Below, in pieces: positions 20,135-40,884 of a DNA stretch of 64,000 bases. Location: assembly GCF_036507355.1 (NCBI RefSeq), contig NZ_AP027877.1; one strand, given 5' to 3'. The translations under genes were made by a program, and so were the position numbers. The notes under the pieces were generated by a model. It had not been told where the DNA came from and searched no databases. It saw only the letters and a program-made list of their open reading frames with translations. Origin of the DNA: Escherichia coli (GTDB lineage Bacteria; Pseudomonadota; Gammaproteobacteria; Enterobacterales; Enterobacteriaceae). The number at the start of each line of letters is the position of its first letter. Positions within the stretch are counted from its first letter, which is position 1.

Positions 20135-20898
20135 GTCAGCCATTATTATCTGTTAACGGCCTGATGATGCGCTTCGGCGGCCTGCTGGCGGTGAACAACG
20201 TCAATCTCGAACTGTACCCGCAGGAGATCGTCTCGTTAATCGGCCCTAACGGCGCCGGAAAAACCACGGTCTTTAACTGCCTGACCGGTTTCTACAAACC
20301 CACCGGCGGAACCATTTTACTGCGCGATCAGCATCTGGAAGGTTTGCCGGGGCAGCAAATTGCTCGCATGGGCGTGGTGCGTACCTTCCAGCATGTGCGT
20401 CTGTTCCGCGAAATGACGGTGATTGAAAACCTGCTGGTGGCGCAGCATCAGCAACTGAAAACCGGGCTGTTCTCTGGCCTGTTGAAAACGCCTTCTTTCC
20501 GTCGCGCCCAGAGCGAAGCGCTCGACCGTGCCGCCACCTGGCTTGAGCGCATTGGTTTGCTGGAACACGCCAACCGTCAGGCGAGTAACCTGGCCTACGG
20601 TGACCAGCGCCGTCTGGAGATCGCCCGCTGCATGGTTACGCAGCCGGAGATTTTAATGCTCGACGAACCTGCGGCAGGTCTTAACCCGAAAGAAACGAAA
20701 GAGCTGGATGAGCTGATTGCCGAACTGCGCAATCATCACAACACCACTATCTTGTTGATTGAACACGATATGAAGCTGGTGATGGGAATTTCGGACCGAA
20801 TTTACGTGGTCAATCAGGGGACGCCGCTGGCAAACGGTACGCCGGAGCAGATCCGTAATAACCCGGACGTGATCCGTGCCTATTTAGGTGAGGCATAA
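20131..20898 (+). CDS. livG: Branched-chain amino acid ABC ATPase LivG (255 aa)
   Basis: Walker [10 protein letters not shown]. Confidence 0.95.
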
Positions 20899-20899
20899 G

Positions 20900-21613: not shown

Positions 21614-21731
21614 ATTATCGATAACCCGGCAGCTAAGTTCTGCCGGGCTCTTCGTCCGTATACAGACTTGTTTCAACTGACCGGGAGGATTAAAACCAGA
21701 CCACTTATTTGCCACGGAAAGGTTCACTCCC

Positions 21732-22478: not shown

Positions 22479-22701
22479 AAATCTTCTTTGCCGTTAGACC
22501 AGTGTCGCGGCAATCTTTTGTTAAAATTGAAAAATGTAGCTCTCATCGGGCAGCAAAACTGGACGCAGAATTTGCTGCCATTTTTGCTCTTCATGGTAAG
22601 GAGTTCTGGCGATTAGCTGGCCGTTAATCGCCTCTTTTCAGTGCATTCTCGGGATATCCGTGCCCCATCTCCCATTTTCCCTCACCCGTACCGTCACCGC
22701 C

Positions 22702-22719
22702 TTGTCATCTTTCTGACAC
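22702..22719 (+). promoter_or_regulatory. Putative Pho box (PhoB site) in the ugpB promoter region
   Basis: ttgtcatctttctgacac approximates the CTGTCAT-N4-CTGTCAC consensus, ~120 nt upstream of ugpB. Confidence 0.45.
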
Positions 22720-22837
22720 CTTACTATCTTACAAATGTAACAAAAAAGTTATTTTTCTGTAATTCGAGCATGTCATGTTACCCCGCGAGCATAAAACGCG
22801 TGAATTCGCGCATTCGGTACAACAAGAGAGATAAACG

Positions 22838-24154
22838 ATGAAACCGTTACATTATACAGCTTCAGCACTGGCGCTCGGACTGGCGTTAATGGGGAATGCA
22901 CAGGCAGTGACAACCATTCCGTTCTGGCATTCTATGGAAGGGGAACTGGGTAAAGAGGTGGATTCTCTGGCCCAACGTTTTAACGCCGAAAACCCGGATT
23001 ACAAAATTGTACCGACCTATAAAGGCAACTACGAACAGAATTTAAGCGCGGGGATTGCCGCATTTCGTACCGGCAATGCTCCGGCTATTTTGCAGGTTTA
23101 TGAAGTTGGCACCGCCACCATGATGGCGTCGAAAGCCATTAAACCGGTATATGACGTGTTTAAAGAGGCGGGGATTCAATTCGATGAGTCGCAGTTTGTG
23201 CCGACGGTTTCCGGTTACTACTCCGACAGCAAAACGGGCCACTTACTCTCCCAGCCATTCAACAGCTCGACCCCCGTTCTCTATTACAACAAAGACGCCT
23301 TCAAGAAAGCAGGATTAGACCCGGAACAGCCGCCGAAAACCTGGCAGGATCTGGCGGACTATTCTGCAAAACTGAAAGCCTCCGGAATGAAGTGCGGCTA
23401 CGCCAGCGGCTGGCAGGGCTGGATCCAACTGGAAAACTTTAGCGCCTGGAACGGTCTGCCGTTTGCCAGCAAAAACAACGGTTTTGACGGCACAGACGCG
23501 GTGCTTGAGTTCAACAAGCCGGAGCAGGTGAAACACATCGCCATGCTCGAAGAGATGAACAAGAAGGGCGATTTCAGCTACGTCGGGCGTAAGGATGAAT
23601 CCACCGAGAAGTTCTATAACGGTGATTGCGCGATGACCACCGCCTCTTCCGGTTCTCTCGCTAATATTCGTGAGTACGCCAAATTTAACTATGGCGTAGG
23701 CATGATGCCTTACGACGCCGATGCGAAAGATGCACCGCAAAACGCCATTATCGGCGGGGCCAGCCTGTGGGTGATGCAGGGCAAAGATAAAGAAACGTAT
23801 ACCGGCGTGGCGAAGTTCCTCGACTTCCTCGCGAAGCCAGAAAACGCTGCCGAGTGGCATCAGAAAACCGGTTATCTGCCAATCACCAAAGCGGCGTATG
23901 ACCTGACTCGTGAGCAGGGCTTTTACGAGAAAAACCCAGGTGCGGATACCGCGACGCGTCAGATGCTGAACAAGCCGCCGTTGCCGTTCACCAAAGGTCT
24001 ACGTCTGGGCAACATGCCGCAGATCCGCGTGATTGTGGATGAAGAGCTGGAGAGCGTGTGGACCGGTAAGAAGACACCACAGCAGGCACTGGATACCGCC
24101 GTTGAGCGTGGAAATCAGTTGCTGCGCCGCTTTGAGAAATCGACGAAGTCTTAA
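22838..24154 (+). CDS. ugpB: sn-glycerol-3-phosphate periplasmic binding protein UgpB (438 aa)
   Basis: 438 aa with signal peptide. Confidence 0.95.
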
Positions 24155-24165
24155 TCAGTGTAATG

Positions 24166-24232
24166 TCGGATGCGTTTCGCTTATCTGACCTGGCATCGCG
24201 TGTAGGCCGGATAAGCGAAGCGCATCCGGCAC
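24166..24232. repeat. REP pair (BIME-like) between ugpB and ugpA
   Basis: Inverted REP units gtcggatgcgtttcgcttatctgacc / gtaggccggataagcgaagcgcatccggca. Confidence 0.7.
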
Positions 24233-24251
24233 AGTTCAGGAATTAACCGTA

Positions 24252-25139
24252 ATGTCATCATCCCGTCCGGTGTTCCGCTCGCGCTGGCTGCCTTATCTGC
24301 TGGTCGCGCCGCAGCTCATCATCACCGTTATCTTTTTTATCTGGCCTGCGGGCGAAGCGTTGTGGTACTCGCTACAAAGCGTCGATCCGTTTGGTTTCTC
24401 CAGCCAGTTTGTCGGCCTGGATAACTTCGTCGCGCTGTTTCATGACAGCTACTATCTCGACTCCTTCTGGACGACGATAAAATTCAGCACCTTTGTCACC
24501 GTCAGCGGTTTGCTGGTATCGCTGTTCTTTGCGGCGCTGGTGGAGTACATCGTGCGCGGCAGTCGTTTCTATCAAACCTTGATGCTGCTGCCGTATGCCG
24601 TGGCTCCCGCCGTTGCCGCCGTATTGTGGATCTTCCTGTTTAACCCCGGTCGCGGGCTGATCACCCATTTTCTCGCTGAGTTCGGCTACGACTGGAACCA
24701 CGCGCAAAATAGCGGTCAGGCGATGTTTCTGGTGGTGTTTGCCTCAGTATGGAAGCAAATCAGCTACAACTTCCTGTTCTTCTATGCCGCGCTGCAATCC
24801 ATTCCCCGTTCGTTGATCGAAGCCGCAGCCATCGACGGTGCAGGGCCGATTCGCCGCTTCTTTAAGATTGCGCTGCCGCTTATCGCCCCGGTGAGTTTCT
24901 TCCTGCTGGTAGTGAACCTGGTGTATGCCTTCTTCGACACCTTCCCGGTGATCGACGCCGCCACGTCCGGCGGGCCGGTTCAGGCCACCACGACGCTGAT
25001 TTATAAGATCTACCGCGAAGGCTTTACCGGACTGGATCTGGCTTCGTCTGCCGCACAGTCGGTGGTGTTGATGTTCCTCGTCATCGTGCTGACGGTGGTG
25101 CAGTTCCGCTATGTTGAAAGCAAGGTGCGTTACCAATGA
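24252..25139 (+). CDS. ugpA: G3P ABC permease UgpA (295 aa)
   Basis: 295-aa permease. Confidence 0.95.
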
Positions 25140-25981
25140 TTGAGAACCGTCCGTGGCTGACGATATTCAGCCATACCATGCTGATCCTCGGGATCGCGGT
25201 GATCCTCTTCCCGCTGTACGTGGCGTTTGTCGCGGCGACGCTGGATAAACAAGCCGTCTACGCCGCGCCGATGACGCTCATCCCCGGCACGCATCTGCTG
25301 GAAAACATCCACAACATCTGGGTAAACGGGGTTGGCACGAATAGTGCGCCGTTCTGGCGGATGTTGCTTAACAGCTTTGTGATGGCGTTCAGCATTACGC
25401 TCGGCAAAATTACCGTCTCGATGCTCTCGGCATTTGCCATTGTCTGGTTTCGTTTTCCGCTACGTAACCTCTTCTTCTGGATGATTTTTATCACCCTGAT
25501 GCTGCCGGTTGAAGTGCGTATCTTCCCGACGGTGGAAGTCATCGCCAACCTGAAAATGCTCGACAGCTACGCAGGTTTAACGCTGCCGCTGATGGCCTCG
25601 GCGACCGCTACCTTCCTGTTCCGCCAGTTCTTTATGACGCTGCCGGATGAGCTGGTGGAAGCCGCGCGGATCGACGGCGCGTCGCCAATGCGCTTCTTTT
25701 GCGACATCGTTTTTCCGTTGTCCAAAACTAATCTGGCGGCGTTGTTTGTGATCACCTTTATTTACGGCTGGAACCAGTATTTGTGGCCGTTGTTGATTAT
25801 TACCGACGTGGATCTCGGCACCACCGTGGCAGGGATCAAAGGGATGATCGCCACTGGCGAAGGCACCACAGAATGGAACTCAGTGATGGCGGCGATGTTG
25901 TTAACCCTGATCCCACCAGTAGTGATTGTTTTAGTGATGCAGCGTGCCTTCGTGCGCGGCCTGGTCGATAGTGAGAAATAA
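25136..25981 (+). CDS. ugpE: G3P ABC permease UgpE (281 aa)
   Basis: 281-aa permease. Confidence 0.95.
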
Positions 25982-25982
25982 G

Positions 25983-27053
25983 ATGGCAGGACTGAAATTA
26001 CAGGCAGTAACCAAAAGCTGGGATGGCAAAACCCAGGTGATTAAACCGCTGACCCTTGATGTGGCGGATGGCGAATTTATCGTGATGGTCGGGCCGTCAG
26101 GCTGCGGGAAATCGACGCTGCTGCGCATGGTTGCCGGGCTGGAGCGGGTGACGGAAGGCGATATCTGGATCAACAACCAGCGGGTGACCGAAATGGAGCC
26201 GAAAGATCGCGGGATTGCGATGGTGTTCCAGAACTACGCGCTTTATCCGCATATGAGTGTTGAAGAAAACATGGCGTGGGGGCTGAAAATTCGCGGCATG
26301 GGCAAGCAGCAAATTGCCGAGCGCGTTAAAGAAGCGGCGCGCATTCTGGAACTGGACGGTCTGCTTAAGCGCCGCCCGCGCGAGCTTTCCGGCGGTCAGC
26401 GTCAGCGTGTGGCGATGGGCCGCGCGATTGTGCGCGATCCGGCGGTGTTCCTGTTTGATGAGCCACTCTCTAACCTCGATGCCAAGCTGCGCGTGCAGAT
26501 GCGCCTTGAATTGCAACAGTTACACCGTCGCCTGAAAACGACTTCACTCTACGTTACTCACGATCAGGTTGAGGCGATGACCCTCGCCCAGCGAGTAATG
26601 GTGATGAACGGCGGCGTTGCCGAACAGATTGGCACACCAGTTGAAGTCTACGAAAAGCCCGCCAGCCTGTTTGTGGCGAGTTTTATCGGCAGTCCGGCGA
26701 TGAACCTGCTGGCAGGCCGCGTGAATAACGATGGCACGCATTTCGAACTGGACGGCGGTATCGCGCTACCGCTAAACGGTGGCTACCGTCAGTATGCCGG
26801 GCGTAAAATGACTCTCGGCATTCGCCCGGAACATATAGCGTTAAGCTCGCAGGCAGAAGGCGGCGTACCGCTGGTGATGGACACGCTGGAGATCCTCGGC
26901 GCTGATAATCTGGCGCACGGACGATGGGGCGAACAGAAGCTGGTGGTGCGACTGGCGCATCAGGAGCGCCCGACGGCAGGCAGCACGCTGTGGCTGCATC
27001 TGGCGGAAAATCAGCTGCATCTTTTTGATGGTGAAACAGGACAACGAGTATGA
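25983..27053 (+). CDS. ugpC: G3P ABC ATPase UgpC (356 aa)
   Basis: ORF 25944..27053 trimmed to [13 protein letters not shown]; Walker [10 protein letters not shown]. Confidence 0.93.
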
Positions 27054-27793
27054 GTAACTGGCCTTATCCCCGCATCGTCGCACATCGTGGCGGCGGTAAG
27101 CTGGCCCCGGAAAACACCCTGGCGGCAATCGACGTCGGGGCAAAATACGGTCATAAGATGATCGAATTTGACGCGAAGTTATCGAAAGATGGCGAGATCT
27201 TTCTGCTCCATGACGACAATCTCGAACGTACCAGCAACGGCTGGGGCGTCGCGGGTGAACTGAACTGGCAGGATTTACTACGTGTGGATGCAGGCAGTTG
27301 GTACGGCAAAGCGTTTAAAGGTGAGCCGCTGCCGTTGCTTTCGCAGGTGGCGGAACGCTGTCGCGAACATGGGATGATGGCGAATATCGAAATCAAACCC
27401 ACCACTGGCACTGGGCCATTAACGGGCAAAATGGTGGCGCTGGCGGCACGCGAGCTGTGGGCCGGTATGACGCCGCCGCTACTGTCATCGTTTGAGATTG
27501 ATGCTTTAGAAGCCGCACAACAGGCAGTACCAGAACTGCCGCGCGGTTTGTTGCTGGATGAGTGGCGCGACGACTGGCGAGAACTGACCGCGCGGCTGGG
27601 CTGCGTCTCTATTCATCTCAATCATAAGTTGCTCGATAAAGCGCGAGTGATGCAGTTGAAAGACGCCGGATTACGGATTCTGGTTTATACCGTCAATAAA
27701 CCCCAGCGCGCGGCAGAGTTGCTGCGCTGGGGCGTGGATTGCATCTGTACCGATGCGATTGATGTGATTGGTCCGAACTTTACGGCCCAATAG
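27050..27793 (+). CDS. ugpQ: Glycerophosphodiester phosphodiesterase UgpQ (247 aa)
   Basis: [23 protein letters not shown] (GDPD motif). Confidence 0.95.
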
Positions 27794-28220
27794 TTTTCAA
27801 CGGAATGTCAGGCTGCGGCGTGCTGGGCTGATTCAGCATGTCGCCGTTTCTCCTCTCCGGCAGCATATGCTGCTGATTCAACGAACTATCCGGATTACGG
27901 TTGCTGTTTAACATCCCGCCGTTGGTGTTGGGCAGCATTTGCTGCCGGGCGGGATTTCGCTCCCCCGGCTGTGACTGCAACACCCGCTGAGAATTATTGT
28001 TTATCTGGTTTTCTAAATGCTGCTGTTGCAACTGAGTTTGCGTTTTCAGTTGCTGATTCAGCATCCCTTTTTGCTGGATTTGCTGCGTTTGCATTTGGGT
28101 TTGCATCCGCTGCTGACTGGGGATCTGATACCCCGGCTGGTTAGGGTTATTCAGAGTATTAATGGGCTGTGCAAAGCCGACAAACGGCAGGAGTGCCGTA
28201 AGAATCAGAAGTCGTTTCAT
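27780..28220 (-). CDS. yhhA: Gln-rich secreted protein YhhA (146 aa)
   Basis: Signal peptide then Q/N-rich low-complexity sequence; conserved position. Confidence 0.8.
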
Positions 28221-28339
28221 CGCGTATCCTCCTCTGAAGATATTCTTTAAGTTTACTCCTTTCCTGCAATCATCAGGATTAATTCAGAGTTATATACCAG
28301 GCTTAGCTGGGGTTGCCCCTTAATCTCTGGAGAATAACG

Positions 28340-30085
28340 ATGATAAAACCGACGTTTTTACGCCGGGTGGCCATTGCTGCTCTGTTCACAGGAAGTTGTT
28401 TTAGTACGGTAGCCGCGCCACCTGCGCCGTCTCCTGTTTCTTACGGCGTGGAGGAAGATGTCTTTCATCCGGTACGCGCGAAACAGGGGATGGTGGCGTC
28501 TGTCGATGCTACTGCCACTCAGGTGGGGGTGGATATCCTCAAGGAGGGCGGGAATGCCGTTGATGCCGCCGTGGCTGTGGGCTACGCGCTGGCGGTAACG
28601 CATCCGCAGGCAGGGAATCTGGGCGGTGGTGGTTTTATGCTGATCCGCTCGAAAAATGGCAATACCACCGCTATCGATTTCCGCGAAATGGCACCCGCCA
28701 AAGCGACCCGCGATATGTTCCTTGATGACCAGGGCAACCCGGACAGCAAAAAATCACTCACTTCGCATCTGGCTTCCGGCACGCCCGGTACGGTCGCTGG
28801 TTTCTCGCTGGCGTTGGATAAATACGGCACAATGCCGTTGAACAAAGTGGTGCAGCCAGCGTTTAAACTGGCACGCGATGGTTTTATCGTTAACGACGCA
28901 CTGGCTGACGATCTCAAAACCTACGGGAGCGAAGTGCTGCCGAATCACGAAAACAGCAAGGCTATCTTCTGGAAAGAGGGCGAGCCGCTGAAAAAGGGCG
29001 ACAAGCTGGTGCAGGCGAACCTGGCAAAGAGCCTGGAGATGATTGCCGAAAACGGCCCGGACGAATTCTACAAAGGCACGATAGCGGAACAGATTGCCCA
29101 GGAGATGCAGAAAAACGGTGGCCTGATCACTAAAGAAGATTTAGCGGCGTATAAAGCGGTCGAACGCACACCGATAAGCGGCGATTATCGCGGGTATCAG
29201 GTTTACTCCATGCCACCGCCATCCTCCGGCGGGATCCATATCGTACAAATCCTCAATATTCTGGAAAACTTCGATATGAAGAAATACGGTTTTGGCAGCG
29301 CCGACGCGATGCAGATCATGGCAGAAGCGGAGAAATATGCCTACGCTGACCGCTCGGAATATCTTGGCGACCCGGATTTTGTGAAAGTCCCGTGGCAGGC
29401 GCTGACCAATAAAGCCTATGCCAAATCTATTGCGGAGCAAATCGATATCAATAAAGCGAAACCGTCCAGCGAGATTCGCCCTGGCAAGCTTGCGCCTTAT
29501 GAGAGTAATCAAACTACCCATTACTCAGTGGTGGATAAAGACGGTAACGCCGTGGCGGTGACCTATACGCTGAACACCACCTTCGGTACGGGTATTGTCG
29601 CGGGCGAGAGCGGTATTCTGCTTAATAACCAGATGGATGATTTCTCCGCCAAACCGGGCGTACCGAACGTTTACGGGCTGGTGGGCGGTGATGCCAACGC
29701 GGTCGGGCCGAATAAACGCCCACTGTCGTCGATGTCACCAACCATTGTGGTGAAAGACGGTAAAACCTGGCTGGTTACCGGTAGCCCTGGCGGGAGTCGG
29801 ATTATTACCACCGTGCTGCAAATAGTGGTGAATAGCATCGATTATGGCATGAACGTCGCCGAAGCGACCAATGCGCCGCGTTTCCACCATCAGTGGTTGC
29901 CGGACGAGCTGCGTGTCGAAAAAGGGTTTAGCCCGGATACGCTCAAGCTGCTGGAAGCAAAAGGTCAGAAAGTGGCGCTGAAAGAGGCGATGGGCAGTAC
30001 ACAAAGCATTATGGTTGGGCCGGACGGTGAGTTGTACGGCGCATCCGACCCGCGCTCGGTGGATGATTTAACGGCGGGGTACTAA
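28340..30085 (+). CDS. ggt: Gamma-glutamyltranspeptidase Ggt
   Basis: ORF 28313..30085 trimmed to MIKPTFLRRVAIAALF; catalytic TTHYSVVD region present. Confidence 0.95.
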   Translation: MIKPTFLRRVAIAALFTGSCFSTVAAPPAPSPVSYGVEEDVFHPVRAKQGMVASVDATATQVGVDILKEGGNAVDAAVAVGYALAVTHPQAGNLGGGGFMLIRSKNGNTTAIDFREMAPAKATRDMFLDDQGNPDSKKSLTSHLASGTPGTVAGFSLALDKYGTMPLNKVVQPAFKLARDGFIVNDALADDLKTYGSEVLPNHENSKAIFWKEGEPLKKGDKLVQANLAKSLEMIAENGPDEFYKGTIAEQIAQEMQKNGGLITKEDLAAYKAVERTPISGDYRGYQVYSMPPPSSGGIHIVQILNILENFDMKKYGFGSADAMQIMAEAEKYAYADRSEYLGDPDFVKVPWQALTNKAYAKSIAEQIDINKAKPSSEIRPGKLAPYESNQTTHYSVVDKDGNAVAVTYTLNTTFGTGIVAGESGILLNNQMDDFSAKPGVPNVYGLVGGDANAVGPNKRPLSSMSPTIVVKDGKTWLVTGSPGGSRIITTVLQIVVNSIDYGMNVAEATNAPRFHHQWLPDELRVEKGFSPDTLKLLEAKGQKVALKEAMGSTQSIMVGPDGELYGASDPRSVDDLTAGY

Positions 30086-30093
30086 GGTTAGCG

Positions 30094-30124
30094 GCCCTCT
30101 TCGTGGGAAGAGGGCTATTTTGTC
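30094..30124. terminator. Bidirectional rho-independent terminator between ggt and yrhB
   Basis: Hairpin gccctcttc-gtgg-gaagagggc flanked by T/A tracts. Confidence 0.75.
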
Positions 30125-30407
30125 AGGGCAAGCCGAAGGTAGCCTTTTTTATTTCGTAATCCTGTAGATATTCTTCCAGCGGCTTTGCCGTTCCCAGAGA
30201 ATGAATTTCACCACTGTCTTTATCAATAATAAAAGGTGCGTTACCAGCTAAGCGCGCGGCCTCATCTCCAGTTTCGAGAAATTCTCGTGCTTCGAAACAG
30301 AAATACCAGCCCTGGCTAAAGCGTCCATGTAGAGTAATGACGACCGGGAGATCTGCATCATCAAGGTAATGGTTCGCTTTCGCGAATGCGTCGTGATAAG
30401 TAATTAT
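30123..30407 (-). CDS. yrhB: YrhB homolog (93 codons read from sequence); expected initiator position is ATA, not ATG
   Basis: Minus-strand translation ITYHDAFAKANHYLDDADLPVVITLHGRFSQGWYFCFEAREFLETGDEAARLAGNAPFIIDKDSGEIHSLGTAKPLEEYLQDYEIKKATFGLP; not in the ORF track because there is no ATG/GTG/TTG before the upstream in-frame stop. Confidence 0.55.
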   Translation of the reverse strand: MITYHDAFAKANHYLDDADLPVVITLHGRFSQGWYFCFEAREFLETGDEAARLAGNAPFIIDKDSGEIHSLGTAKPLEEYLQDYEIKKATFGLP

Positions 30408-30604
30408 AATTATAATAAATATTATTGTTGAGTGTTATATTATTATTCCTGTGTGATACATTGAGCAAAGGCGCGTTCATCTTCGTCAAAGATATTATTA
30501 AATGCTGGTTTTGAAAAAAGTTCATCGGATAAGATATAGTCACGAAATAAGTATCTGCTAATATTTTGTGATTTTTTTCAGAACGTCGAACGGGATTTTC
30601 TTAT

Positions 30605-30769
30605 TTAAGATATCAGAATCTTATGATTCGGGTAAAATTCTAAATAAATCAACATGTCACTAAAATCATCATAGCCATTAGCTATTTCGGCTAAAATAGA
30701 GACTACATGTCTTCGGTCCATCTCACTTAAGGAGTGTAGTTCCGTTGTAAGTTTTTCCATAGCTTGCAT
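30605..30769 (-). CDS. Possible small ORF (54 aa)
   Basis: ATG..TAA ORF read by hand: MQAMEKLTTELHSLSEMDRRHVVSILAEIANGYDDFSDMLIYLEFYPNHKILIS; AT-rich; below the track length cutoff. Confidence 0.25.
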   Translation of the reverse strand: MQAMEKLTTELHSLSEMDRRHVVSILAEIANGYDDFSDMLIYLEFYPNHKILIS

Positions 30770-30854
30770 TGCTAAATTTCGAACAAGGAATTTTCTGGTG
30801 GTAATCTCTAAAAAGATGGTATGGTTTACAATGATTTTTGTTTCCTTTTGATTA

Positions 30855-31349
30855 TTATGAACAACTGTCCATGATTTCGTTTAAGAATGAAGAGAAATCA
30901 CTAAACGAACTGAATATATTTTCTGTGCCAATATTATCTCTAATTTCAAAAAAGTTACTTTTAATGTCATAAGTAAATATTGAAATGCTATCATCCCCGA
31001 TCACTAACCGTTCTTGTAGATCAGGGTTTATGAAATCATCATTATTTCTATAAAATTCATTTACGGCAAAAAGGTTTTTAACTGAAGGTTCTGGAATCGA
31101 GAGGCTAAATAATCGTAATCCATTAACTTCGAATCCATCCATTGCTCTTAAAAAAGTAAGATAATCAGGTTGATTCTTAAAAAGAATACTAACTTCATTA
31201 CATAACTTCTCCAGGCAATTAGTTGAATTAGAATTAAATTCTATTTGGATTATACTTTCAATAAATGATTCCTTGAGCGGTGCTTCAAATGGATAGTCTA
31301 AATCATTCATCATTTTTATTAATTTGTTTATTTGGGTTTTAGTCATCAT
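30855..31349 (-). CDS. Putative immunity protein (YrhA-like), translationally coupled to the upstream Hcp-HNH gene (164 aa)
   Basis: Start ATG overlaps the stop of the HNH reading frame (ATGA); AT-rich, acidic small protein typical of immunity genes. Confidence 0.6.
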   Translation of the reverse strand: MMTKTQINKLIKMMNDLDYPFEAPLKESFIESIIQIEFNSNSTNCLEKLCNEVSILFKNQPDYLTFLRAMDGFEVNGLRLFSLSIPEPSVKNLFAVNEFYRNNDDFINPDLQERLVIGDDSISIFTYDIKSNFFEIRDNIGTENIFSSFSDFSSFLNEIMDSCS

Positions 31350-32524
31350 TTTGTGGGTTCCATAATATTTTTCATGGGAGGATAAATTGAGCCAGATGGA
31401 ATGGCCCAGGGAGTGATTTTACTTTCACCTACTAATATTCCCTTAGCTATTCGTGATTGCATGTTAGTAAAAACTTTATGATATGGTTCGTTTTCGATTA
31501 ATACTAAATTTTCGAAATCATTAGTACCACCATCATCTAGAGATAGTTTATGGTGAACATTATAATTTAGAGGAACATAGCCCTTTCTCATTCTTAAAAG
31601 GTCTTCGGCGTTGAATCTTCCAGATGCTTCGGAGGTTTTTGCAAGTTTGATAAGAAAATTTTTTCTTACAGTTTTGTTAAACTCCTTTCGTAAGTTAGCT
31701 AAGTCTTTTGAAGGTCTCTTAATGTATATTATTTATATTATGTCTATGCCATCAAGAAGTTTTTGTTGACCTCTAAGTTTGCCTAAGTAACTATTTATTT
31801 CTGTATATGTATCAACTCTAGAACGCTTTGTTAAAAGAATAGATGCTGTTGCTATCGCTATGCCCGCTGTTTTTTCATTTAGTATTTGATCATAGCCTTT
31901 GATTGCATCTCCACCCAGTTTTTCCGCAGTATCTCTGAATCCTTCAATGTTCCCATTGTATACGCCACCAGCAGCAAGTAGCCTGCCAACAGCTTTGCTG
32001 TTTAACGTTTTGAAACGATTATTTGTTTGGTTTTTTGAATTTGGTAAAAACAAACGGTTATAATTTTCAGGGAGTGCCAAATAGCTGAACTCGGTATTTG
32101 CGATAAGATGTTGACAGAGGATAAATTCATAACTAACAGTTATTGTTTCTGTATCCAGTTGATTTTCAATGATCTGATGATGAATAGCCGATAAAAAAGC
32201 GCCTCTTAGTTGTATATAATAATACTTTTCCCATCTGCCAAATCTATTGATTCTATAAAAGTCAAATCCCATAAATAATTGCTCATTATTGTTAATGGAA
32301 TTAATAAGTAATGGAGTGCTTTTATCAATTAATTTACAAAATGTTATACCCTGTAACTGTGAACCAAGCCCCGTATTAGTAATGCTATTTGCGAGTGAGA
32401 ATGTAAATATTTCATTCTCATGCCCGCTCTGCCAGCGATTACCTATAGATTCAGTAGTCCCACAACCTGCGGAGATGCTTCCTTGTTGTTCTCCCGTTAC
32501 TGTCAGGTAAACAATATTACTCAT
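31346..32524 (-). pseudogene. yhhZ: Hcp-domain protein with C-terminal HNH nuclease (YhhZ-like Hcp-ET toxin), interrupted by an in-frame TAA
   Basis: ORFs 31733..32524 (263 aa, Hcp-like N-terminus) and 31346..31591 (HNH motif NYNVHHKLSLDDGGTNDFENLVLIENEPYH) are in the same frame, separated by one TAA at 31733..31735; the full span is 393 codons. Confidence 0.7.
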
Positions 32525-32760
32525 CCCTGAAAAGTCCTTTTATGGCATGCTATTTTATCAATGGCACTATTATGCTTGTTAATTGTTATTTATTTACTCC
32601 AGGAAATTGTAGGCGTATATATTAAAAAATAAAATATTACACTTTAGGAAGTAATTATGAGGTAAATCTCAATATATTTATTGGGAAAATAAATATATTA
32701 AAGGAAGGTATGCCGATTTTGAATGACACCCTTTTTCCATCTCAGAAAAAGGGCACTATC

Positions 32761-33249
32761 TTACTTCACCCGCGCCATATAATACGCATCGACATATTCA
32801 CCATTACGCAATGCGTACTTCTTACCAGTCCCTTCAATTTCAAAGCCGTATTTTTTATAGACCTTAATTGCCGGGGCGTTATCGACAAACACGGTTAGTT
32901 CAATGCGATCTACCCGCAACCAGTTGTCGCACATTTCAATCATCTCTCGCATAAGGGCGCTGGCGACGCCGCGATTCTTCCAACGGGAGTCGACACAGAT
33001 ACCAAAATCGGCAACATGACTGCGGCGTGGGCGCTGTTGCACGTCAATGGTGAGATGACCCACGACGTCTCCATCAATACAGGCGACGAGTTGCTTGATG
33101 CCGGGACGATCGGCGAGTCGCTCCTGCCACATATGATCGGAAGGATGAGGCACCTGTAGTGTGTTGTAATACACCTCCGGCTGGGCGTGAATCTGCCTGA
33201 TGGCCTCGTAATCGCGCGTTTCAGCATGGCGTATCACTATCTCACTCAT
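32761..33249 (-). CDS. yhhY: GNAT N-acetyltransferase YhhY (162 aa)
   Basis: ORF 32761..33327 trimmed to MSEIVIRHAETRDYEAIRQIHA. Confidence 0.9.
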   Translation of the reverse strand: MSEIVIRHAETRDYEAIRQIHAQPEVYYNTLQVPHPSDHMWQERLADRPGIKQLVACIDGDVVGHLTIDVQQRPRRSHVADFGICVDSRWKNRGVASALMREMIEMCDNWLRVDRIELTVFVDNAPAIKVYKKYGFEIEGTGKKYALRNGEYVDAYYMARVK

Positions 33250-33346
33250 TCCTTTGTCCTCTTTGGGGGAAATGTCCCTTTCAACATCATTGACTTTCGA
33301 ATGCGAGTCAAATGCATTTTTTTGCAAAAAGTGTTGGACAAGTGCG

Positions 33347-33365
33347 AATGAGAATGATTATTATT
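33347..33365 (+). promoter_or_regulatory. Fur box overlapping the ryhB promoter
   Basis: aatgagaatgattattatt resembles the Fur consensus GATAATGATAATCATTATC, immediately upstream of the RyhB start. Confidence 0.6.
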
Positions 33366-33370
33366 GTCTC

Positions 33371-33466
33371 GCGATCAGGAAGACCCTCGCGGAGAACCTG
33401 AAAGCACGACATTGCTCACATTGCTTCCAGTATTACTTAGCCAGCCGGGTGCTGGCTTTTTTTTTT
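33371..33466 (+). ncRNA. ryhB: RyhB iron-responsive small RNA
   Basis: gcgatcaggaagaccctcgcggagaacctgaaagcacgacattgctcacattgcttccag...gccagccgggtgctggc plus T-tract terminator, matching my memory of RyhB; in the yhhY-yhhX spacer. Confidence 0.9.
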
Positions 33467-33582
33467 GATCTTTCGTTCTCAATTTATCCACGGGAGTGCT
33501 TGTGTTCGTTATGCGCACTCCAGTAGGAACCACGCCCGCTTTGCGCTAAGGTGTAAATAACCACCTTAAAAAGGACGAAATT

Positions 33583-34620
33583 ATGGTCATCAACTGCGCC
33601 TTTATTGGCTTCGGCAAAAGCACCACCCGTTACCATCTGCCGTATGTACTTAACCGCAAGGATAGCTGGCATGTCGCGCATATTTTTCGTCGCCATGCGA
33701 AGCCGGAAGAACAGGCTCCCATTTATTCCCATATCCATTTCACCAGCGATCTCGACGAAGTGCTAAACGATCCCGATGTTAAGCTGGTTGTTGTCTGCAC
33801 CCATGCGGATAGCCACTTCGAGTACGCGAAGCGCGCGCTGGAAGCCGGGAAAAATGTGCTGGTCGAAAAACCGTTCACTCCGACGCTTGCGCAGGCGAAA
33901 GAGCTGTTTGCTCTGGCGAAAAGTAAAGGGCTGACCGTCACGCCATATCAGAATCGTCGCTTTGATTCCTGCTTCCTGACGGCGAAAAAAGCGATTGAAA
34001 GCGGCAAGCTGGGAGAGATTGTCGAAGTGGAAAGCCATTTTGACTATTACCGCCCGGTGGCAGAAACCAAACCTGGGCTGCCGCAGGATGGCGCGTTCTA
34101 TGGCCTTGGTGTGCATACGATGGACCAGATTATTTCTCTATTCGGTCGCCCGGATCACGTCGCTTATGACATCCGCAGCCTGCGCAATAAAGCCAATCCT
34201 GACGATACTTTCGAAGCGCAACTGTTTTATGGCGATCTAAAAGCCATCGTCAAAACCAGCCATCTGGTGAAAATCGATTATCCGAAATTTATCGTTCACG
34301 GTAAGAAAGGTTCGTTTATTAAATACGGTATCGACCAGCAGGAAACCAGCCTGAAGGCTAATATTATGCCGGGCGAACCGGGATTCGCAGCGGATGATTC
34401 GGTCGGTGTGCTGGAGTATGTCAATGACGAGGGCGTGACGGTCAGAGAAGAGATGAAGCCGGAGATGGGCGATTACGGGCGCGTTTATGATGCGTTGTAT
34501 CAAACCATCACCCACGGTGCGCCAAATTACGTCAAGGAATCTGAAGTTCTTACGAATCTGGAAATCCTTGAACGCGGATTCGAGCAAGCCTCTCCCTCCA
34601 CAGTGATTCTCGCGAAGTAA
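33583..34620 (+). CDS. yhhX: Gfo/Idh/MocA-family oxidoreductase YhhX (345 aa)
   Basis: 345 aa; N-terminal Rossmann motif. Confidence 0.92.
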   Translation: MVINCAFIGFGKSTTRYHLPYVLNRKDSWHVAHIFRRHAKPEEQAPIYSHIHFTSDLDEVLNDPDVKLVVVCTHADSHFEYAKRALEAGKNVLVEKPFTPTLAQAKELFALAKSKGLTVTPYQNRRFDSCFLTAKKAIESGKLGEIVEVESHFDYYRPVAETKPGLPQDGAFYGLGVHTMDQIISLFGRPDHVAYDIRSLRNKANPDDTFEAQLFYGDLKAIVKTSHLVKIDYPKFIVHGKKGSFIKYGIDQQETSLKANIMPGEPGFAADDSVGVLEYVNDEGVTVREEMKPEMGDYGRVYDALYQTITHGAPNYVKESEVLTNLEILERGFEQASPSTVILAK

Positions 34621-34742
34621 GTTTGATGGCCCCTCGAATAGTTCAATTTTTTTGAACAGAGGGGTCAATTTTCACCCTCTATCATCCCAGGCAGATCGGG
34701 TCCACACTAAGCCCATCGAAATCATTCAGGGGGCGAATACAA

Positions 34743-35438
34743 ATGATCTACTTACGCAAAGCAAATGAACGTGGTCATGCAAATCATGGCTGGCTGGACT
34801 CCTGGCATACTTTCTCTTTTGCCAACTATTACGATCCGAACTTTATGGGCTTCTCCGCGCTGCGCGTGATTAACGACGACGTGATTGAAGCAGGGCAGGG
34901 CTTCGGCACTCACCCGCATAAAGATATGGAAATTTTGACCTACGTGCTGGAAGGTACTGTTGAGCACCAGGACAGCATGGGCAATAAAGAGCAGGTTCCG
35001 GCGGGTGAGTTCCAGATTATGAGTGCTGGTACGGGTATTCGTCACTCAGAGTACAACCCAAGCAGCACCGAGCGTCTGCATCTGTATCAGATCTGGATCA
35101 TGCCTGAAGAAAACGGTATTACGCCGCGTTATGAACAGCGTCGCTTCGATGCCGTACAGGGCAAACAGCTGGTGCTCTCGCCGGATGCGCGAGATGGTTC
35201 ATTGAAAGTGCACCAGGATATGGAACTGTACCGCTGGGCGTTGCTGAAAGATGAGCAGTCGGTGCATCAGATTGCCGCTGAACGCCGCGTCTGGATCCAG
35301 GTGGTGAAAGGCAATGTCACCATTAACGGCGTGAAAGCCTCGACCAGCGATGGTCTGGCAATCTGGGATGAGCAGGCAATCTCCATCCATGCGGATAGCG
35401 ACAGCGAAGTGTTACTGTTCGATCTGCCGCCGGTTTAA
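34743..35438 (+). CDS. yhhW: Pirin-like quercetin 2,3-dioxygenase YhhW (231 aa)
   Basis: 231 aa; cupin His motifs (HPHKDMEIL). Confidence 0.92.
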   Translation: MIYLRKANERGHANHGWLDSWHTFSFANYYDPNFMGFSALRVINDDVIEAGQGFGTHPHKDMEILTYVLEGTVEHQDSMGNKEQVPAGEFQIMSAGTGIRHSEYNPSSTERLHLYQIWIMPEENGITPRYEQRRFDAVQGKQLVLSPDARDGSLKVHQDMELYRWALLKDEQSVHQIAAERRVWIQVVKGNVTINGVKASTSDGLAIWDEQAISIHADSDSEVLLFDLPPV

Positions 35439-35661
35439 AGCTCAACGGCATCTTTGAAGCCTGCCTTTTTGCAGGCTTCCTCGCTCGCTCCGGTCGCGTG
35501 CTGATGTACGCTTCCGGGGGGTTGCCGCGTCGTTAGCACAATGCGATACAATTGATTTAGTGTATATCTAATAATTGTAAACAAGCACTGTTTTCCCCGG
35601 GAAGGTTCTGATGCGTCCGTGTTAAACTAAGAGAATCTATCTCTTTTGTACCTTCAGGACG

Positions 35662-36657
35662 ATGAAAAAGAAAAGACCCGTACTTCAGGATGTGGCTGAC
35701 CGTGTAGGCGTGACCAAAATGACGGTCAGCCGTTTTTTACGCAACCCGGAGCAGGTTTCCGTCGCTCTACGCGGCAAGATTGCCGCGGCTCTTGATGAAC
35801 TGGGCTATATTCCCAATCGTGCGCCCGATATCCTCTCTAACGCCACCAGCCGGGCGATTGGCGTCCTGTTACCTTCTCTCACCAACCAGGTTTTCGCGGA
35901 AGTATTACGCGGAATCGAAAGCGTCACCGACGCGCACGGTTATCAGACCATGCTGGCGCACTACGGTTATAAACCGGAAATGGAGCAAGAACGCCTCGAA
36001 TCCATGCTCTCCTGGAATATCGACGGACTTATCCTCACCGAACGTACGCACACGCCGCGCACCTTAAAGATGATTGAAGTGGCGGGGATCCCGGTGGTGG
36101 AGTTGATGGACAGCCAGTCGCCGTGTCTCGATATCGCCGTCGGTTTTGATAACTTTGAAGCGGCACGCCAGATGACCACAGCCATTATTGCTCGCGGGCA
36201 TCGCCACATTGCCTATCTCGGCGCACGTCTCGACGAACGTACTATCATCAAACAGAAGGGATACGAACAGGCGATGCTGGATGCAGGCCTGGTGCCATAT
36301 AGCGTGATGGTTGAGCAATCTTCTTCTTACTCTTCCGGTATTGAACTGATTCGCCAGGCACGGCGGGAATATCCGCAGCTGGATGGCGTGTTCTGTACTA
36401 ATGATGATCTGGCGGTCGGCGCGGCGTTTGAATGTCAGCGTCTGGGGTTGAAAGTTCCTGACGATATGGCGATTGCCGGTTTCCACGGTCATGACATTGG
36501 CCAGGTGATGGAGCCACGGTTGGCGAGCGTGCTGACGCCGCGTGAGCGGATGGGCAGTATTGGCGCTGAACGCCTGCTGGCGCGTATTCGTGGCGAATCT
36601 GTGACACCGAAAATGTTAGATTTAGGTTTCACCTTGTCACCGGGCGGATCTATTTAA
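35662..36657 (+). CDS. gntR: Gluconate repressor GntR, LacI family (331 aa)
   Basis: N-terminal HTH (VTKMTVSRFL), LacI-type periplasmic-binding fold. Confidence 0.95.
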   Translation: MKKKRPVLQDVADRVGVTKMTVSRFLRNPEQVSVALRGKIAAALDELGYIPNRAPDILSNATSRAIGVLLPSLTNQVFAEVLRGIESVTDAHGYQTMLAHYGYKPEMEQERLESMLSWNIDGLILTERTHTPRTLKMIEVAGIPVVELMDSQSPCLDIAVGFDNFEAARQMTTAIIARGHRHIAYLGARLDERTIIKQKGYEQAMLDAGLVPYSVMVEQSSSYSSGIELIRQARREYPQLDGVFCTNDDLAVGAAFECQRLGLKVPDDMAIAGFHGHDIGQVMEPRLASVLTPRERMGSIGAERLLARIRGESVTPKMLDLGFTLSPGGSI

Positions 36658-36736
36658 GCCCACAAATTTGAAGTAGCTCACACTTATACACTTAAGGCAC
36701 GGATGGATATTGCTTCTGATATTGTCCGGTCGGACA

Positions 36737-36765
36737 ATGTTACCGATAACAGTTACCCGTAACAT
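36737..36765 (+). promoter_or_regulatory. Putative GntR operator upstream of gntK
   Basis: Inverted repeat atgttaccgataacagttacccgtaacat. Confidence 0.6.
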
Positions 36766-36795
36766 TTTTAATTCTTGTATTGTGGGGGCACCACT

Positions 36796-37323
36796 TTGAG
36801 CACGACTAACCATGATCACCACATTTACGTCTTGATGGGCGTATCGGGCAGCGGCAAATCTGCGGTCGCCAGTGAAGTGGCGCATCAACTTCATGCCGCG
36901 TTTCTTGATGGCGATTTCCTCCATCCACGGCGCAATATCGAAAAAATGGCGTCTGGCGAACCACTGAATGACGACGATCGCAAACCGTGGTTGCAGGCGC
37001 TGAACGACGCCGCGTTTGCTATGCAGCGCACTAATAAAGTGTCGCTGATCGTCTGTTCTGCATTGAAAAAACACTATCGCGACTTGCTGCGTGAAGGTAA
37101 TCCGAATCTCTCTTTCATCTACCTGAAAGGCGATTTTGATGTGATTGAAAGCCGCCTGAAAGCGCGCAAAGGCCATTTCTTTAAAACCCAAATGTTGGTA
37201 ACGCAGTTTGAAACGCTGCAGGAGCCGGGTGCGGACGAAACCGATGTACTGGTGGTAGATATCGATCAACCGCTGGAAGGTGTTGTGGCAAGCACCATTG
37301 AGGTTATTAAAAAAGGCAAATAA
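36796..37323 (+). CDS. gntK: Gluconokinase GntK (175 aa, probable TTG start)
   Basis: ORF 36775..37323; start set at TTG giving MSTTNHDHHIYVLMGVSGSGKSAV (P-loop). Confidence 0.88.
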   Translation: MSTTNHDHHIYVLMGVSGSGKSAVASEVAHQLHAAFLDGDFLHPRRNIEKMASGEPLNDDDRKPWLQALNDAAFAMQRTNKVSLIVCSALKKHYRDLLREGNPNLSFIYLKGDFDVIESRLKARKGHFFKTQMLVTQFETLQEPGADETDVLVVDIDQPLEGVVASTIEVIKKGK

Positions 37324-37326
37324 GTA

Positions 37327-38667
37327 GTGACTACATTAACGCTTGTTTTAACAGCAGTAGGGTCTGTTTTACTGCTGCTGTTTTTAGTCATGAAGGCGCG
37401 TATGCACGCTTTCCTGGCTTTGATGGTGGTGTCCATGGGGGCTGGCCTTTTTTCTGGTATGCCGCTCGATAAAATCGCAGCGACGATGGAAAAAGGGATG
37501 GGAGGCACCCTCGGCTTCCTGGCGGTGGTTGTCGCCCTGGGAGCCATGTTTGGCAAGATCTTACATGAAACCGGCGCAGTCGATCAGATTGCCGTCAAAA
37601 TGCTCAAATCCTTCGGTCACAGCCGCGCGCATTATGCCATCGGCCTTGCGGGGCTGGTCTGTGCGCTACCGCTGTTCTTTGAAGTGGCGATTGTTCTGCT
37701 GATTAGCGTTGCTTTCTCAATGGCGCGCCACACCGGTACGAACCTGGTGAAGCTGGTAATCCCATTATTCGCAGGCGTGGCGGCAGCGGCGGCGTTCCTG
37801 GTGCCAGGGCCAGCGCCAATGCTGCTGGCATCGCAGATGAACGCCGATTTTGGCTGGATGATCCTGATTGGCCTGTGTGCGGCAATTCCGGGAATGATTA
37901 TTGCCGGGCCGCTGTGGGGTAACTTCATCAGCCGTTACGTTGAGCTGCATATTCCTGACGACATCAGCGAGCCGCATCTCGGCGAAGGCAAAATGCCGTC
38001 CTTCGGATTCAGCCTGTCGCTGATCCTGCTGCCGCTGGTGCTGGTGGGGCTGAAAACCATTGCCGCGCGTTTTGTGCCGGAAGGCTCTACCGCTTACGAA
38101 TGGTTCGAGTTTATTGGTCATCCGTTTACCGCGATTCTGGTTGCTTGTCTGGTAGCGATTTATGGCCTGGCAATGCGTCAGGGCATGCCAAAAGACAAAG
38201 TGATGGAGATTTGCGGTCACGCGCTGCAACCGGCGGGGATCATTCTGCTGGTGATTGGTGCGGGCGGCGTGTTCAAACAGGTGCTGGTTGACTCTGGCGT
38301 AGGTCCGGCACTGGGCGAAGCGTTAACCGGCATGGGCCTGCCGATTGCTATCACCTGCTTCGTGCTGGCCGCTGCAGTGCGCATCATTCAGGGGTCTGCC
38401 ACCGTTGCCTGTTTAACGGCGGTGGGGCTGGTGATGCCGGTCATTGAACAACTGAACTATTCCGGTGCGCAAATGGCGGCGCTGTCGATTTGTATCGCCG
38501 GTGGTTCAATTGTTGTCAGCCACGTTAACGATGCCGGTTTCTGGTTGTTCGGTAAATTTACCGGCGCGACCGAAGCCGAAACGCTGAAAACCTGGACCAT
38601 GATGGAAACCATCCTCGGCACTGTCGGTGCCATCGTTGGGATGATTGCGTTCCAGCTGTTGAGTTAA
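37327..38667 (+). CDS. gntU: Low-affinity gluconate transporter GntU (446 aa)
   Basis: 446-aa GntP-family permease. Confidence 0.95.
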   Translation: MTTLTLVLTAVGSVLLLLFLVMKARMHAFLALMVVSMGAGLFSGMPLDKIAATMEKGMGGTLGFLAVVVALGAMFGKILHETGAVDQIAVKMLKSFGHSRAHYAIGLAGLVCALPLFFEVAIVLLISVAFSMARHTGTNLVKLVIPLFAGVAAAAAFLVPGPAPMLLASQMNADFGWMILIGLCAAIPGMIIAGPLWGNFISRYVELHIPDDISEPHLGEGKMPSFGFSLSLILLPLVLVGLKTIAARFVPEGSTAYEWFEFIGHPFTAILVACLVAIYGLAMRQGMPKDKVMEICGHALQPAGIILLVIGAGGVFKQVLVDSGVGPALGEALTGMGLPIAITCFVLAAAVRIIQGSATVACLTAVGLVMPVIEQLNYSGAQMAALSICIAGGSIVVSHVNDAGFWLFGKFTGATEAETLKTWTMMETILGTVGAIVGMIAFQLLS

Positions 38668-38723
38668 GTTTGTTCGCCCGGTAGTTGTGACGCTACCGGG
38701 CTCTTTTCGAAAAACTCTCCTCG

Positions 38724-39317
38724 TTACCCCTTCATCCACATTCGAATGCCGTCGAGGAACATCTGGGTTGCCATCATCACCAGAATCAATCCCATCAGGC
38801 GTTCAAGTGCGTTCACCCCTTTCTCGCCCAGCAGACGTAAAAATAGCGAAGACTGTAGCAGGATGACAAAGGTGCCGCCCCAGGCCAGCAGCAGAGCAAT
38901 CACCAGATGTCCCATCTGATTCGGGTACTGATGAGACAACAACATCAGCGTGGCGAGAATAGTTGGCCCGGCGACCAGCGGAATTGCCAGCGGCACGATA
39001 AATGGCTCTTCACCTGCCGGAAGCCCGCTGCTATTTCCTGAAGCGCTGGGGAAAATCATCTTAATGGCAATTAGAAACAGAATGATGCCGCCAGAAATGG
39101 AGACGGTTTCTGCTCGTAGGCTGAGAAATGCCAGAATTTTCTCACCCGCAAACAGGAACACCAGCATCACCAGGAGAGCAATAAGCAACTCTCGCACCAT
39201 GATTGCCCGCCGTCTTTTCGGTTCAGTATGTTTCAGTACGGACATGAAAATAGGTAGGTTTCCGAGCGGATCCATAATCAGGATCAATAAAACTGCTGCA
39301 GAAATGATTTCATTCAT
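38724..39317 (-). CDS. yhgN: MarC-family membrane protein YhgN (197 aa)
   Basis: 197-aa multi-TM ORF. Confidence 0.9.
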   Translation of the reverse strand: MNEIISAAVLLILIMDPLGNLPIFMSVLKHTEPKRRRAIMVRELLIALLVMLVFLFAGEKILAFLSLRAETVSISGGIILFLIAIKMIFPSASGNSSGLPAGEEPFIVPLAIPLVAGPTILATLMLLSHQYPNQMGHLVIALLLAWGGTFVILLQSSLFLRLLGEKGVNALERLMGLILVMMATQMFLDGIRMWMKG

Positions 39318-39508
39318 AACTCAAATTCCCTGATAATTGCCGCGGACTTTCTGCGTGCTAACAAAGCAGGATAAGTCGCATTACTGATGGCTTCGCTATC
39401 ATTGATTAATTTCACTTGCGACTTTGGCTGCTTTTTGTATGGTGAAAGATGTGCCAAGAGGAGACCGGCACATTTATACAGCACACATCTTTGCAGGAAA
39501 AAACGCTT

Positions 39509-40612
39509 ATGAAAAATGTTGGTTTTATCGGCTGGCGCGGTATGGTCGGCTCCGTTCTCATGCAACGCATGGTTGAAGAGCGCGACTTCGACGCCATTCG
39601 CCCTGTCTTCTTTTCTACTTCTCAGCTTGGTCAGGCTGCGCCGTCTTTTGGCGGAACCACTGGCACACTTCAGGATGCCTTTGATCTGGAGGCGCTAAAG
39701 GCCCTCGATATCATTGTGACCTGTCAGGGCGGCGATTATACCAACGAAATCTATTCAAAGCTTCGTGAAAGCGGATGGCAGGGTTACTGGATTGACGCAG
39801 CATCGTCTCTGCGCATGAAAGATGACGCCATCATCATTCTTGACCCCGTCAATCAGGACGTCATTACCGACGGATTAAATAATGGCATCAGGACTTTTGT
39901 TGGCGGTAACTGTACCGTAAGCCTGATGTTGATGTCGTTGGGTGGTTTATTCGCCAATGATCTTGTTGATTGGGTGTCCGTTGCAACCTACCAGGCCGCT
40001 TCCGGCGGTGGTGCGCGACATATGCGTGAGTTATTAACCCAGATGGGCCATCTGTATGGCCATGTAGCAGATGAACTCGCGACCCCGTCCTCTGCTATTC
40101 TCGATATCGAACGCAAAGTCACAACCTTAACCCGTAGCGGTGAGCTGCCGGTGGATAACTTTGGCGTGCCGCTGGCAGGTAGCCTGATTCCGTGGATCGA
40201 CAAACAGCTCGATAACGGTCAGAGCCGCGAAGAGTGGAAAGGGCAGGCGGAAACCAACAAGATCCTCAACACATCTTCCGTAATTCCGGTAGATGGTTTA
40301 TGTGTGCGTGTCGGGGCATTGCGCTGCCACAGCCAGGCATTCACTATTAAATTGAAAAAAGATGTGTCTATTCCGACCGTGGAAGAACTGCTGGCTGCGC
40401 ACAATCCGTGGGCGAAAGTCGTTCCGAACGATCGGGAAATCACTATGCGTGAGCTAACCCCAGCTGCCGTTACCGGCACGCTGACCACGCCGGTAGGCCG
40501 CCTGCGTAAGCTGAATATGGGACCAGAGTTCCTGTCAGCCTTTACCGTGGGCGACCAGCTGCTGTGGGGGGCCGCGGAGCCGCTGCGTCGGATGCTTCGT
40601 CAACTGGCGTAA
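39509..40612 (+). CDS. asd: Aspartate-semialdehyde dehydrogenase Asd (367 aa)
   Basis: ORF 39449..40612 trimmed to [16 protein letters not shown]. Confidence 0.95.
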
Positions 40613-40884
40613 TCTTTATTCATTAAATCTGGGGCGCGATGCCGCCCCTGTTAGTGCGTAATACAGGAGTAAGCGCAGATGTTTCATGATTTACCGGGAG
40701 TTAAATAGAGCATTGGCTATTCTTTAAGGGTGGCTGAATACATGAGTATTCACAGCCTTACCTGAAGTGAGGACGACGCAGAGAGGATGCACAGAGTGCT
40801 GCGCCGTTCAGGTCAAAAAAATGTCACAACCAGAAGTCAAAAATCCAATTGGATGGGGTGACACAATAAAACAGGAAGACAAGC

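Follow-up and report, generated by a model that had tools for sequence, protein, structure and literature searches.

Is the reading frame of yhhZ in this Escherichia coli genome broken, or does the stop codon within it separate two genes that are translated independently? The window, by which we mean the whole stretch of 64,000 nucleotides analyzed here (contig NZ_AP027877.1), carries on its minus strand an open reading frame of 263 amino acids (31733..32524) upstream of a TAA, and another of 81 amino acids (31346..31591) downstream of it, which according to the ORF list are in the identical frame. Translated conceptually, the full span (31346..32524) comprises 393 codons, interrupted once by an internal TAA at 31735..31733, where the coding strand reads ...GGC ATA GAC ATA ATA TAA ATA ATA TAC ATT AAG.... 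An earlier note on this DNA had taken the span for a yhhZ-like Hcp-HNH gene that a single in-frame stop interrupts. Its coordinates, the shared frame, and the 393-codon span all agree with the ORF list and the translation, and the reading itself is supported by domain matches and by alignment to orthologues. As set out below, yhhZ is here very probably a loss-of-function nonsense allele of an orphan Hcp-HNH (Hcp-ET1-type) T6SS toxin gene, produced by a single G-to-T change. The features referred to in the text are the following, with their basis in brackets.

31346..32524, minus strand: yhhZ (tssD/Hcp-ET1-type Hcp-HNH toxin gene), a pseudogene here (translation, identity to PapM-32-1, K-12 b3442 at the same locus)
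31733..31735, minus strand: premature stop TAA, from GAA (Glu264), by G>T at 31735 (alignments, allele counts)
31736..32524, minus strand: coding part still translated, comprising the Hcp domain, a conserved helical extension, and the first toxin-domain strands, 263 aa (ORF list)
32084..32524, minus strand: Hcp (TssD) domain, residues 1-147 (TIGR03344, Pfam T6SS_HCP, PDB sequence and fold matches)
31832..32083, minus strand: conserved extension, residues ~148-231 (homologue alignment; helices 176-231 predicted at low confidence)
31370..31792, minus strand: predicted C-terminal toxin domain, residues ~245-385, interrupted at residue 264 (AlphaFold model, Foldseek)
31445..31564, minus strand: predicted beta-beta-alpha-Me (HNH) catalytic core, residues 321-360, now untranslated (invariant residues, predicted strands and helix)
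31346..31591, minus strand: 81-aa in-frame ORF from Met312, probably not expressed (Shine-Dalgarno match, position after the stop)
31724..31741, minus strand: tandem imperfect 9-nt repeat, codons 262-267 (sequence)
30855..31349, minus strand: yrhA, 164-aa putative immunity gene, intact (NCBIfam NF038335)
30605..30760, minus strand: yrhD, small gene in the AT-rich islet, open here (ORF list; position inferred from annotated relatives)
30123..30407, minus strand: yrhB (Imm35-family), with ATA replacing the ATG start (comparison with other strains)

The locus is arranged in the order yhhY - yhhZ - yrhA - yrhD - yrhB - ggt, and both sequence and order match K-12 MG1655, in which the orthologous genes for YhhZ and YrhA (b3442/b3443) also lie between yhhY and ggt, with ~97% nucleotide identity. 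The four small genes lie in an AT-rich islet (~30250..32750) whose GC content is 30-36%, compared with 50-55% on either side. In K-12, yhhZ (b3442) encodes a 392-aa 'putative endonuclease', and the intact gene of strain PapM-32-1, which carries the annotation Hcp1 family T6SS effector, is 99.6% identical to that of the window. The two ORFs of the window are jointly colinear with the single 392-aa protein of intact orthologues, and the exact sequence of the 263-aa product is public as BED20520.1. Farther out, the RyhB small RNA lies at 33400..33464 (+) between yhhX and yhhY, as in K-12 (Rfam RF00057, 83.1 bits), and a match to the ES036/CssrF sRNA was found at 54862..54904 (+).

The N-terminal part of the protein is readily recognized. 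The NCBIfam Hcp profile TIGR03344 matches residues 1-147 of the 263-aa product with 122.7 bits against a cutoff of 58.9, Pfam T6SS_HCP (PF05638) matches the N-terminus with E=1.8e-12, and Hcp sequences in the PDB match it with E-values down to 5.6e-12. Foldseek retrieved the Hcp crystal structures 6a2v, 3he1, and 4hkh at a probability of 1.0, from an N-terminal model of low pLDDT. No T6SS cluster was found within the 64-kb window. Homologues of the 263-aa product from Citrobacter, Salmonella, and Enterobacter have residues 1-~230 in common and then continue into unlike C-termini. Indeed, conservation in the alignment of Hcp-ET homologues ends near residue 230, beyond which HNH, PF15644, PF11429, PF21814, and other domains are found. 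Judged by its sequence, yhhZ thus has the architecture of a polymorphic-toxin Hcp-ET, in which a conserved Hcp module is joined to an interchangeable toxin domain. By the same measure the window copy is a pseudogene of this family rather than a functional member, residues 264-392 having been removed.

The conceptual unbroken protein contains a beta-beta-alpha-metal His...Asn...His motif and is predicted to be a nuclease. An AlphaFold model of its residues 236-392 (pLDDT 90.1, pTM 0.84) consists of a three-stranded sheet (245-268), helices (272-313), the HNH core (321-360, with predicted strands 321-325 and 340-344 and a helix at 345-360), and a final strand (368-376). Foldseek matched the model to DNase domains of the pyocins S2 and AP41 and of colicins E7 and E9 at a probability of 1.0 over ~80 residues, with an rmsd of 2.5-3.0 Å. 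The helical-plus-HNH fold and the catalytic His/Asn pattern are shared with these enzymes, whereas sequence identity is only 16-28%, the extra N-terminal three-stranded sheet is peculiar to YhhZ, and delivery is via Hcp instead of a colicin translocation domain. The Pfam HNH profile gave a weak match (E=0.015) and Col-Pyo_DNase no significant match to the toxin domain (E=1.7); the yhhZ protein has been classed in group 32 of the His-Me finger proteins (PMC5714182). H324, H325, N335, N339, and H349 are invariant in 11 divergent homologues, and all five lie downstream of the stop.

In the models, residue 264 falls within strand 260-268, the third of the toxin domain's first sheet, and coincides with neither the end of Hcp nor the junction at ~230. 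The 263-aa product therefore keeps Hcp, the extension, and ~20 residues of the toxin domain, and is devoid of any catalytic residue. The earlier note had translation ending after the Hcp domain, with the nuclease domain untranslated. The HNH core is indeed left untranslated, but the stop lies ~115 residues past Hcp (1-147), inside the first beta-sheet of the toxin.

How the stop arose is directly visible in the alignment. Codon 264 is GAA (Glu264) in intact orthologues and TAA in the window, a G-to-T difference without a gap. Of the two origins that had been proposed for it, a point change or a short duplication, the latter is ruled out: one base differs, and the length of the gene is unchanged. 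Alleles were counted with 55-nt queries in which the variable base is central, so that every 28-nt megablast word must include it. Among 5,426 complete E. coli genomes, yhhZ was found in 3,805; the G allele is present in 3,514 and the T allele in two, A30 (NZ_CP028745) and GPT24-02 (NZ_OZ282453), in both of which RefSeq marks yhhZ as pseudo with an 'internal stop'. Since the two ORFs are colinear with one 392-aa orthologue, and since the sense base predominates so strongly over T, we regard the split as a real disruption of a gene rather than a chance stop. A30 and GPT24-02 have the identical GAA>TAA at codon 264, at the same locus and next to an intact yrhA; they differ from the window at the flanking sites 755 and 916 and are 98.7% identical to it over 24 kb.

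Could the TAA nevertheless be a sequencing or assembly error in a genome whose real yhhZ is intact? The best match to window positions 20000..44000 among the 5,426 complete genomes reaches 98.7-98.8% over 24 kb, so that there is no second complete RefSeq genome of the same strain with which to compare the base, and a private change in the start codon of yrhB might hint at base errors. However, assemblies of two further sequencing runs, SRR32181686 and SRR17480487, contain contigs that encode the 263-aa protein. These carry the TAA on the same haplotype; the first differs from the window at 1 of 4,059 bases and the second at none of 1,820. Both contigs (L010 1-27 and L011 1-25) start with 25-27 nt of the IS1 terminal repeat (ACTAAATCAGTAAGTTGGCAGCATCACC) joined to the 3' end of yhhY, a junction which maps to ~32791 of the window, where the window itself has no IS1. 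This junction, together with the difference of one contig at the yrhB start, identifies the two runs as separate isolates of the window's lineage, and a sequencing error that recurs in both of them is very unlikely. The identical substitution in two complete genomes speaks against an error as well, and we consider this explanation extremely improbable. The substitution, its rarity, and its presence in independent isolates are direct observations, as is the domain anatomy given above.

The lineage of the window is thinly represented among public genomes. Its closest relatives are the baboon isolates PapRG-04-4, PapM-32-1, and A30, together with the O145:H28 group, and its sister isolates have IS1 in yhhY. 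The reading frame remains open over the 128 codons 3' of the stop, in which one synonymous change is private, and the stop therefore looks like a recent, lineage-specific event.

Two other sources of apparent truncation were considered and set aside. The names 'tube protein TssD' and 'Hcp1 family effector' are of no use as proxies for a pseudogene, because both occur on intact genes, and the public truncated proteins of 244-274 aa do not represent further stops at this site, since all those examined end at contig ends. A Logan contig (L027, SRR1122530; positions 2213-2262, corresponding to ~31693..31792) passes from gene position 737 into the reverse-complemented stretch 832..803 at an inverted microhomology of 5 nt (AGTTA), which yields a 245-aa product that is present on 12 contigs. 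Not one of the 3,787 complete genomes matched has this inversion-like junction, which was treated as an artefact or a minor variant rather than as a real allele. Many short-read contigs also stop between gene positions 736 and 824. Candidate causes of the junction and of these contig ends are a library artefact, poor coverage where the DNA is AT-rich, and a minor inversion.

If the two ORFs were genuine genes, the locus would encode a stand-alone Hcp-like protein and a small HNH nuclease translated separately from Met312 (31591). The 81-aa ORF is indeed open, holds the whole beta-beta-alpha-Me motif, and was called by an automatic gene caller on one Logan contig. It lacks a Shine-Dalgarno sequence, however, the best match being 3/6, and its start lies 47 codons (141 nt) past the TAA. 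Moreover, the absence of residues 245-311 deprives it of half of the predicted toxin domain, the stop falls within a beta-strand rather than at a domain boundary, and the locus encodes one continuous protein in 3,514 genomes, with no conserved two-gene arrangement among the orthologues of the kind that the earlier note had named as the contrary outcome. Reinitiation at the internal Met, which that note had also raised, is unlikely for want of a Shine-Dalgarno sequence. A promoter created by the G>T change was considered as another route to expression of the downstream part: a -35/-10-like match does span the site, but matches in the region number 10 against 11.9 expected, and both promoter-like and terminator-like matches in the yhhZ region are at chance level. 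All in all, two separate genes have hardly any probability, and the preferred reading remains that of a single gene disrupted by a nonsense mutation.

The same locus has suffered different damage in other lineages, although yhhZ is intact in 7 of the 9 genomes of a spread sample. The states of the two genes are as follows.

K-12 MG1655: yhhZ intact; yrhA split by IS1E
O145:H28: yhhZ with a Glu25 stop and a 4-bp insertion; yrhA intact
C10: 3' part of yhhZ deleted, next to IS1; yrhA deleted
PMV-1: yhhZ with a Tyr267 stop; yrhA frameshifted
UTI89, ATCC 11775: yhhZ with a Tyr267 stop; yrhA intact
Window, A30, GPT24-02: yhhZ with the Glu264 stop; yrhA intact

In the Tyr267 allele, yhhZ is cut three codons later than in the window, leaving a 266-aa product. 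It is another allele, generated by another mutation (TAC>TAA, window 31724..31726; loci L019, L024, L025), and it is common, occurring in 130 of the 5,426 complete genomes, including UTI89, S88, IHE3034, APEC O1, and the type strain ATCC 11775. K-12 MG1655 shows the opposite damage, with an apparently complete toxin gene beside a putative immunity gene that is broken by IS1E (L004 5864-8310). In O145:H28 strains (RM12761, L003 2537-3719 and 4660-4943), the Glu25 codon is changed from GAA to TAA, TTGG is inserted after gene position 444, and yrhB is frameshifted.

A published pair with which the locus can be compared is Hcp-ET1/ETI1 of STEC. According to PMC6730261, PMC6099711, and bioRxiv 10.1101/2024.03.05.583533, which report the work of Ma et al. 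2017, Hcp-ET1 (AAF13_24945) is an orphan Hcp-HNH protein of O104:H4 that acts as a T6SS2-delivered DNase and is neutralised by the downstream ETI1. Unlike the truncated copy of the window, Hcp-ET1 is a full-length protein with reported activity in T6SS2-dependent killing. HUSEC2011 (O104:H4) has exactly one copy of yhhZ, located at this locus and followed by yrhA, and we infer that Hcp-ET1/ETI1 is equivalent to YhhZ/YrhA.

That two stops lie so close together draws attention to the sequence in which they occur. As the earlier note had observed, the coding strand contains an imperfect repeat at the stop, ATAATATAA (31741..31733) followed by ATAATATAC (31732..31724), i.e., ATAATA-TAA / ATAATA-TAC, the ancestral form being ATAATAGAA / ATAATATAC. 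The repeat is of low complexity, each unit consisting of (ATA)2 and one further codon in a region of ~30% GC, and it was not reported by a repeat-finding search of the window. An in-frame 9-bp duplication at the same repeat (GAAATAATA, Glu-Ile-Ile twice) is found in 4 complete genomes on at least 2 backgrounds, for example in A29 (L020). One may therefore ask if the repeat is a mutational hotspot at which misalignment between the imperfect copies templated the stop. The G>T change does match copy 1 to copy 2 at that base, the C>A change at Tyr267 matches copy 2 to copy 1, and the 9-bp duplication indicates slippage at the very same repeat. Yet GAA becomes a stop by G>T alone, so that the match is forced by the way in which the site was discovered. 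The reciprocal missense chimeras, with GAC at codon 264 or 267 (E264D, Y267D), occur in 0 complete genomes, and repeat-templated conversion was rejected on this ground; as an explanation of the stop, templated misalignment seems to us unlikely.

The truncation might instead be adaptive rather than the outcome of neutral decay, with the HNH toxin disarmed again and again near codons 264-267 in lineages that retain Hcp and immunity. The independent Tyr267 stop in 130 genomes, among them UTI89 and ATCC 11775 with intact yrhA, is in line with this idea, as are the presence of the Glu264 stop on two local haplotypes and the lack of E264D and Y267D chimeras. However, among 174 possible nonsense changes and three independent events, two would fall within three codons with P ~0.07, which is not significant and comes from a post hoc comparison. 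The two haplotypes can likewise be accounted for by recombination alone: gene positions 755 and 916, the sites at which the window and A30 differ, fail the four-gamete test with each other, so that one Glu264 mutation suffices. Lesions are also found elsewhere in yhhZ, namely the Glu25 stop and 4-bp insertion of O145:H28 and the IS1-associated deletion of C10, and PMV-1 has lost yrhA as well. Adaptive truncation is accordingly quite improbable in our estimation. A broader proposal makes codons 262-267 a site of recurrent disarming, at which several lineages (that of the window, possibly A30/GPT24-02 independently, and the UTI89 type) have lost the toxin and kept immunity, either through selection for an immune, unarmed state or through local misalignment mutagenesis; this we hold to be distinctly unlikely. 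We therefore return to the nonsense allele as a plain loss of function, and turn to what it leaves behind.

The claim that the immunity gene is retained is borne out: yrhA (30855..31349) is intact. Its product matches the YrhA family NF038335 of NCBIfam with 125.5 bits, and the exact sequence is present on at least 1,000 public contigs; it is the common allele. YrhA has no match in Pfam, the four islet proteins have none in PADLOC, and YrhA is unrelated to the Im proteins by any test applied. Its putative role as an immunity protein is suggested by its position and by the Hcp-ET1/ETI1 literature. The ATG of yrhA, a gene with a weak ribosome-binding site of its own (TATGGAACCCACAAAATG), overlaps the natural TGA of yhhZ (ATGA). 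Because translation of yhhZ now ends 384 nt upstream of this overlap, translation of yrhA has probably lost its coupling to that of yhhZ, and yrhA may be expressed less. The untranslated stretch past the TAA has a mild excess of C over G (C/G 1.2), which is not decisive for Rho-dependent polarity. Next in the islet, yrhB, whose product belongs to the Imm35 family (PF15567), has ATA at its start (30405..30407, minus strand) in the window and ATG in six other strains as well as in the otherwise identical Logan contig L010, which represents either a private loss of the start codon or an erroneous base in the genome of the window.

Taken together, these results suggest the following course of events. 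A G-to-T transversion turned Glu264 (GAA) into TAA, so that translation stops after 263 residues, and what remains is the Hcp tube-protein fold, the extension, and ~20 residues from the start of the toxin domain. Gone are all later parts of this colicin/pyocin-like DNase domain, every catalytic residue among them, and a cell making only this product could presumably no longer deploy the toxin. With yrhA intact, such a cell could still withstand the toxin when sister strains deploy it, perhaps at a lower level of yrhA expression, since the start of yrhA overlaps the natural yhhZ stop and coupling has probably been lost. Low-level readthrough of the TAA is possible. Furthermore, the toxin may in any case be silent in many strains, as the combination of an intact yhhZ with an IS1-disrupted yrhA in K-12 suggests, and in that case the stop would have little phenotypic effect.

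The yhhZ gene of the window is thus an ordinary strain-level pseudogene in a well-characterized polymorphic toxin gene, and the identical allele is already flagged in the public annotation of two genomes. The correct annotation is a single yhhZ/tssD pseudogene with an internal stop rather than two genes; the strain is to be recorded as being without the yhhZ T6SS DNase effector and as having retained yrhA. Toxin and immunity genes at this locus break in different combinations, with immunity lost in K-12, the toxin in the window and UTI89, and both in PMV-1. The locus is a small example of the decay of an orphan polymorphic toxin which, while not surprising, could interest those who model the turnover of toxin and immunity genes.
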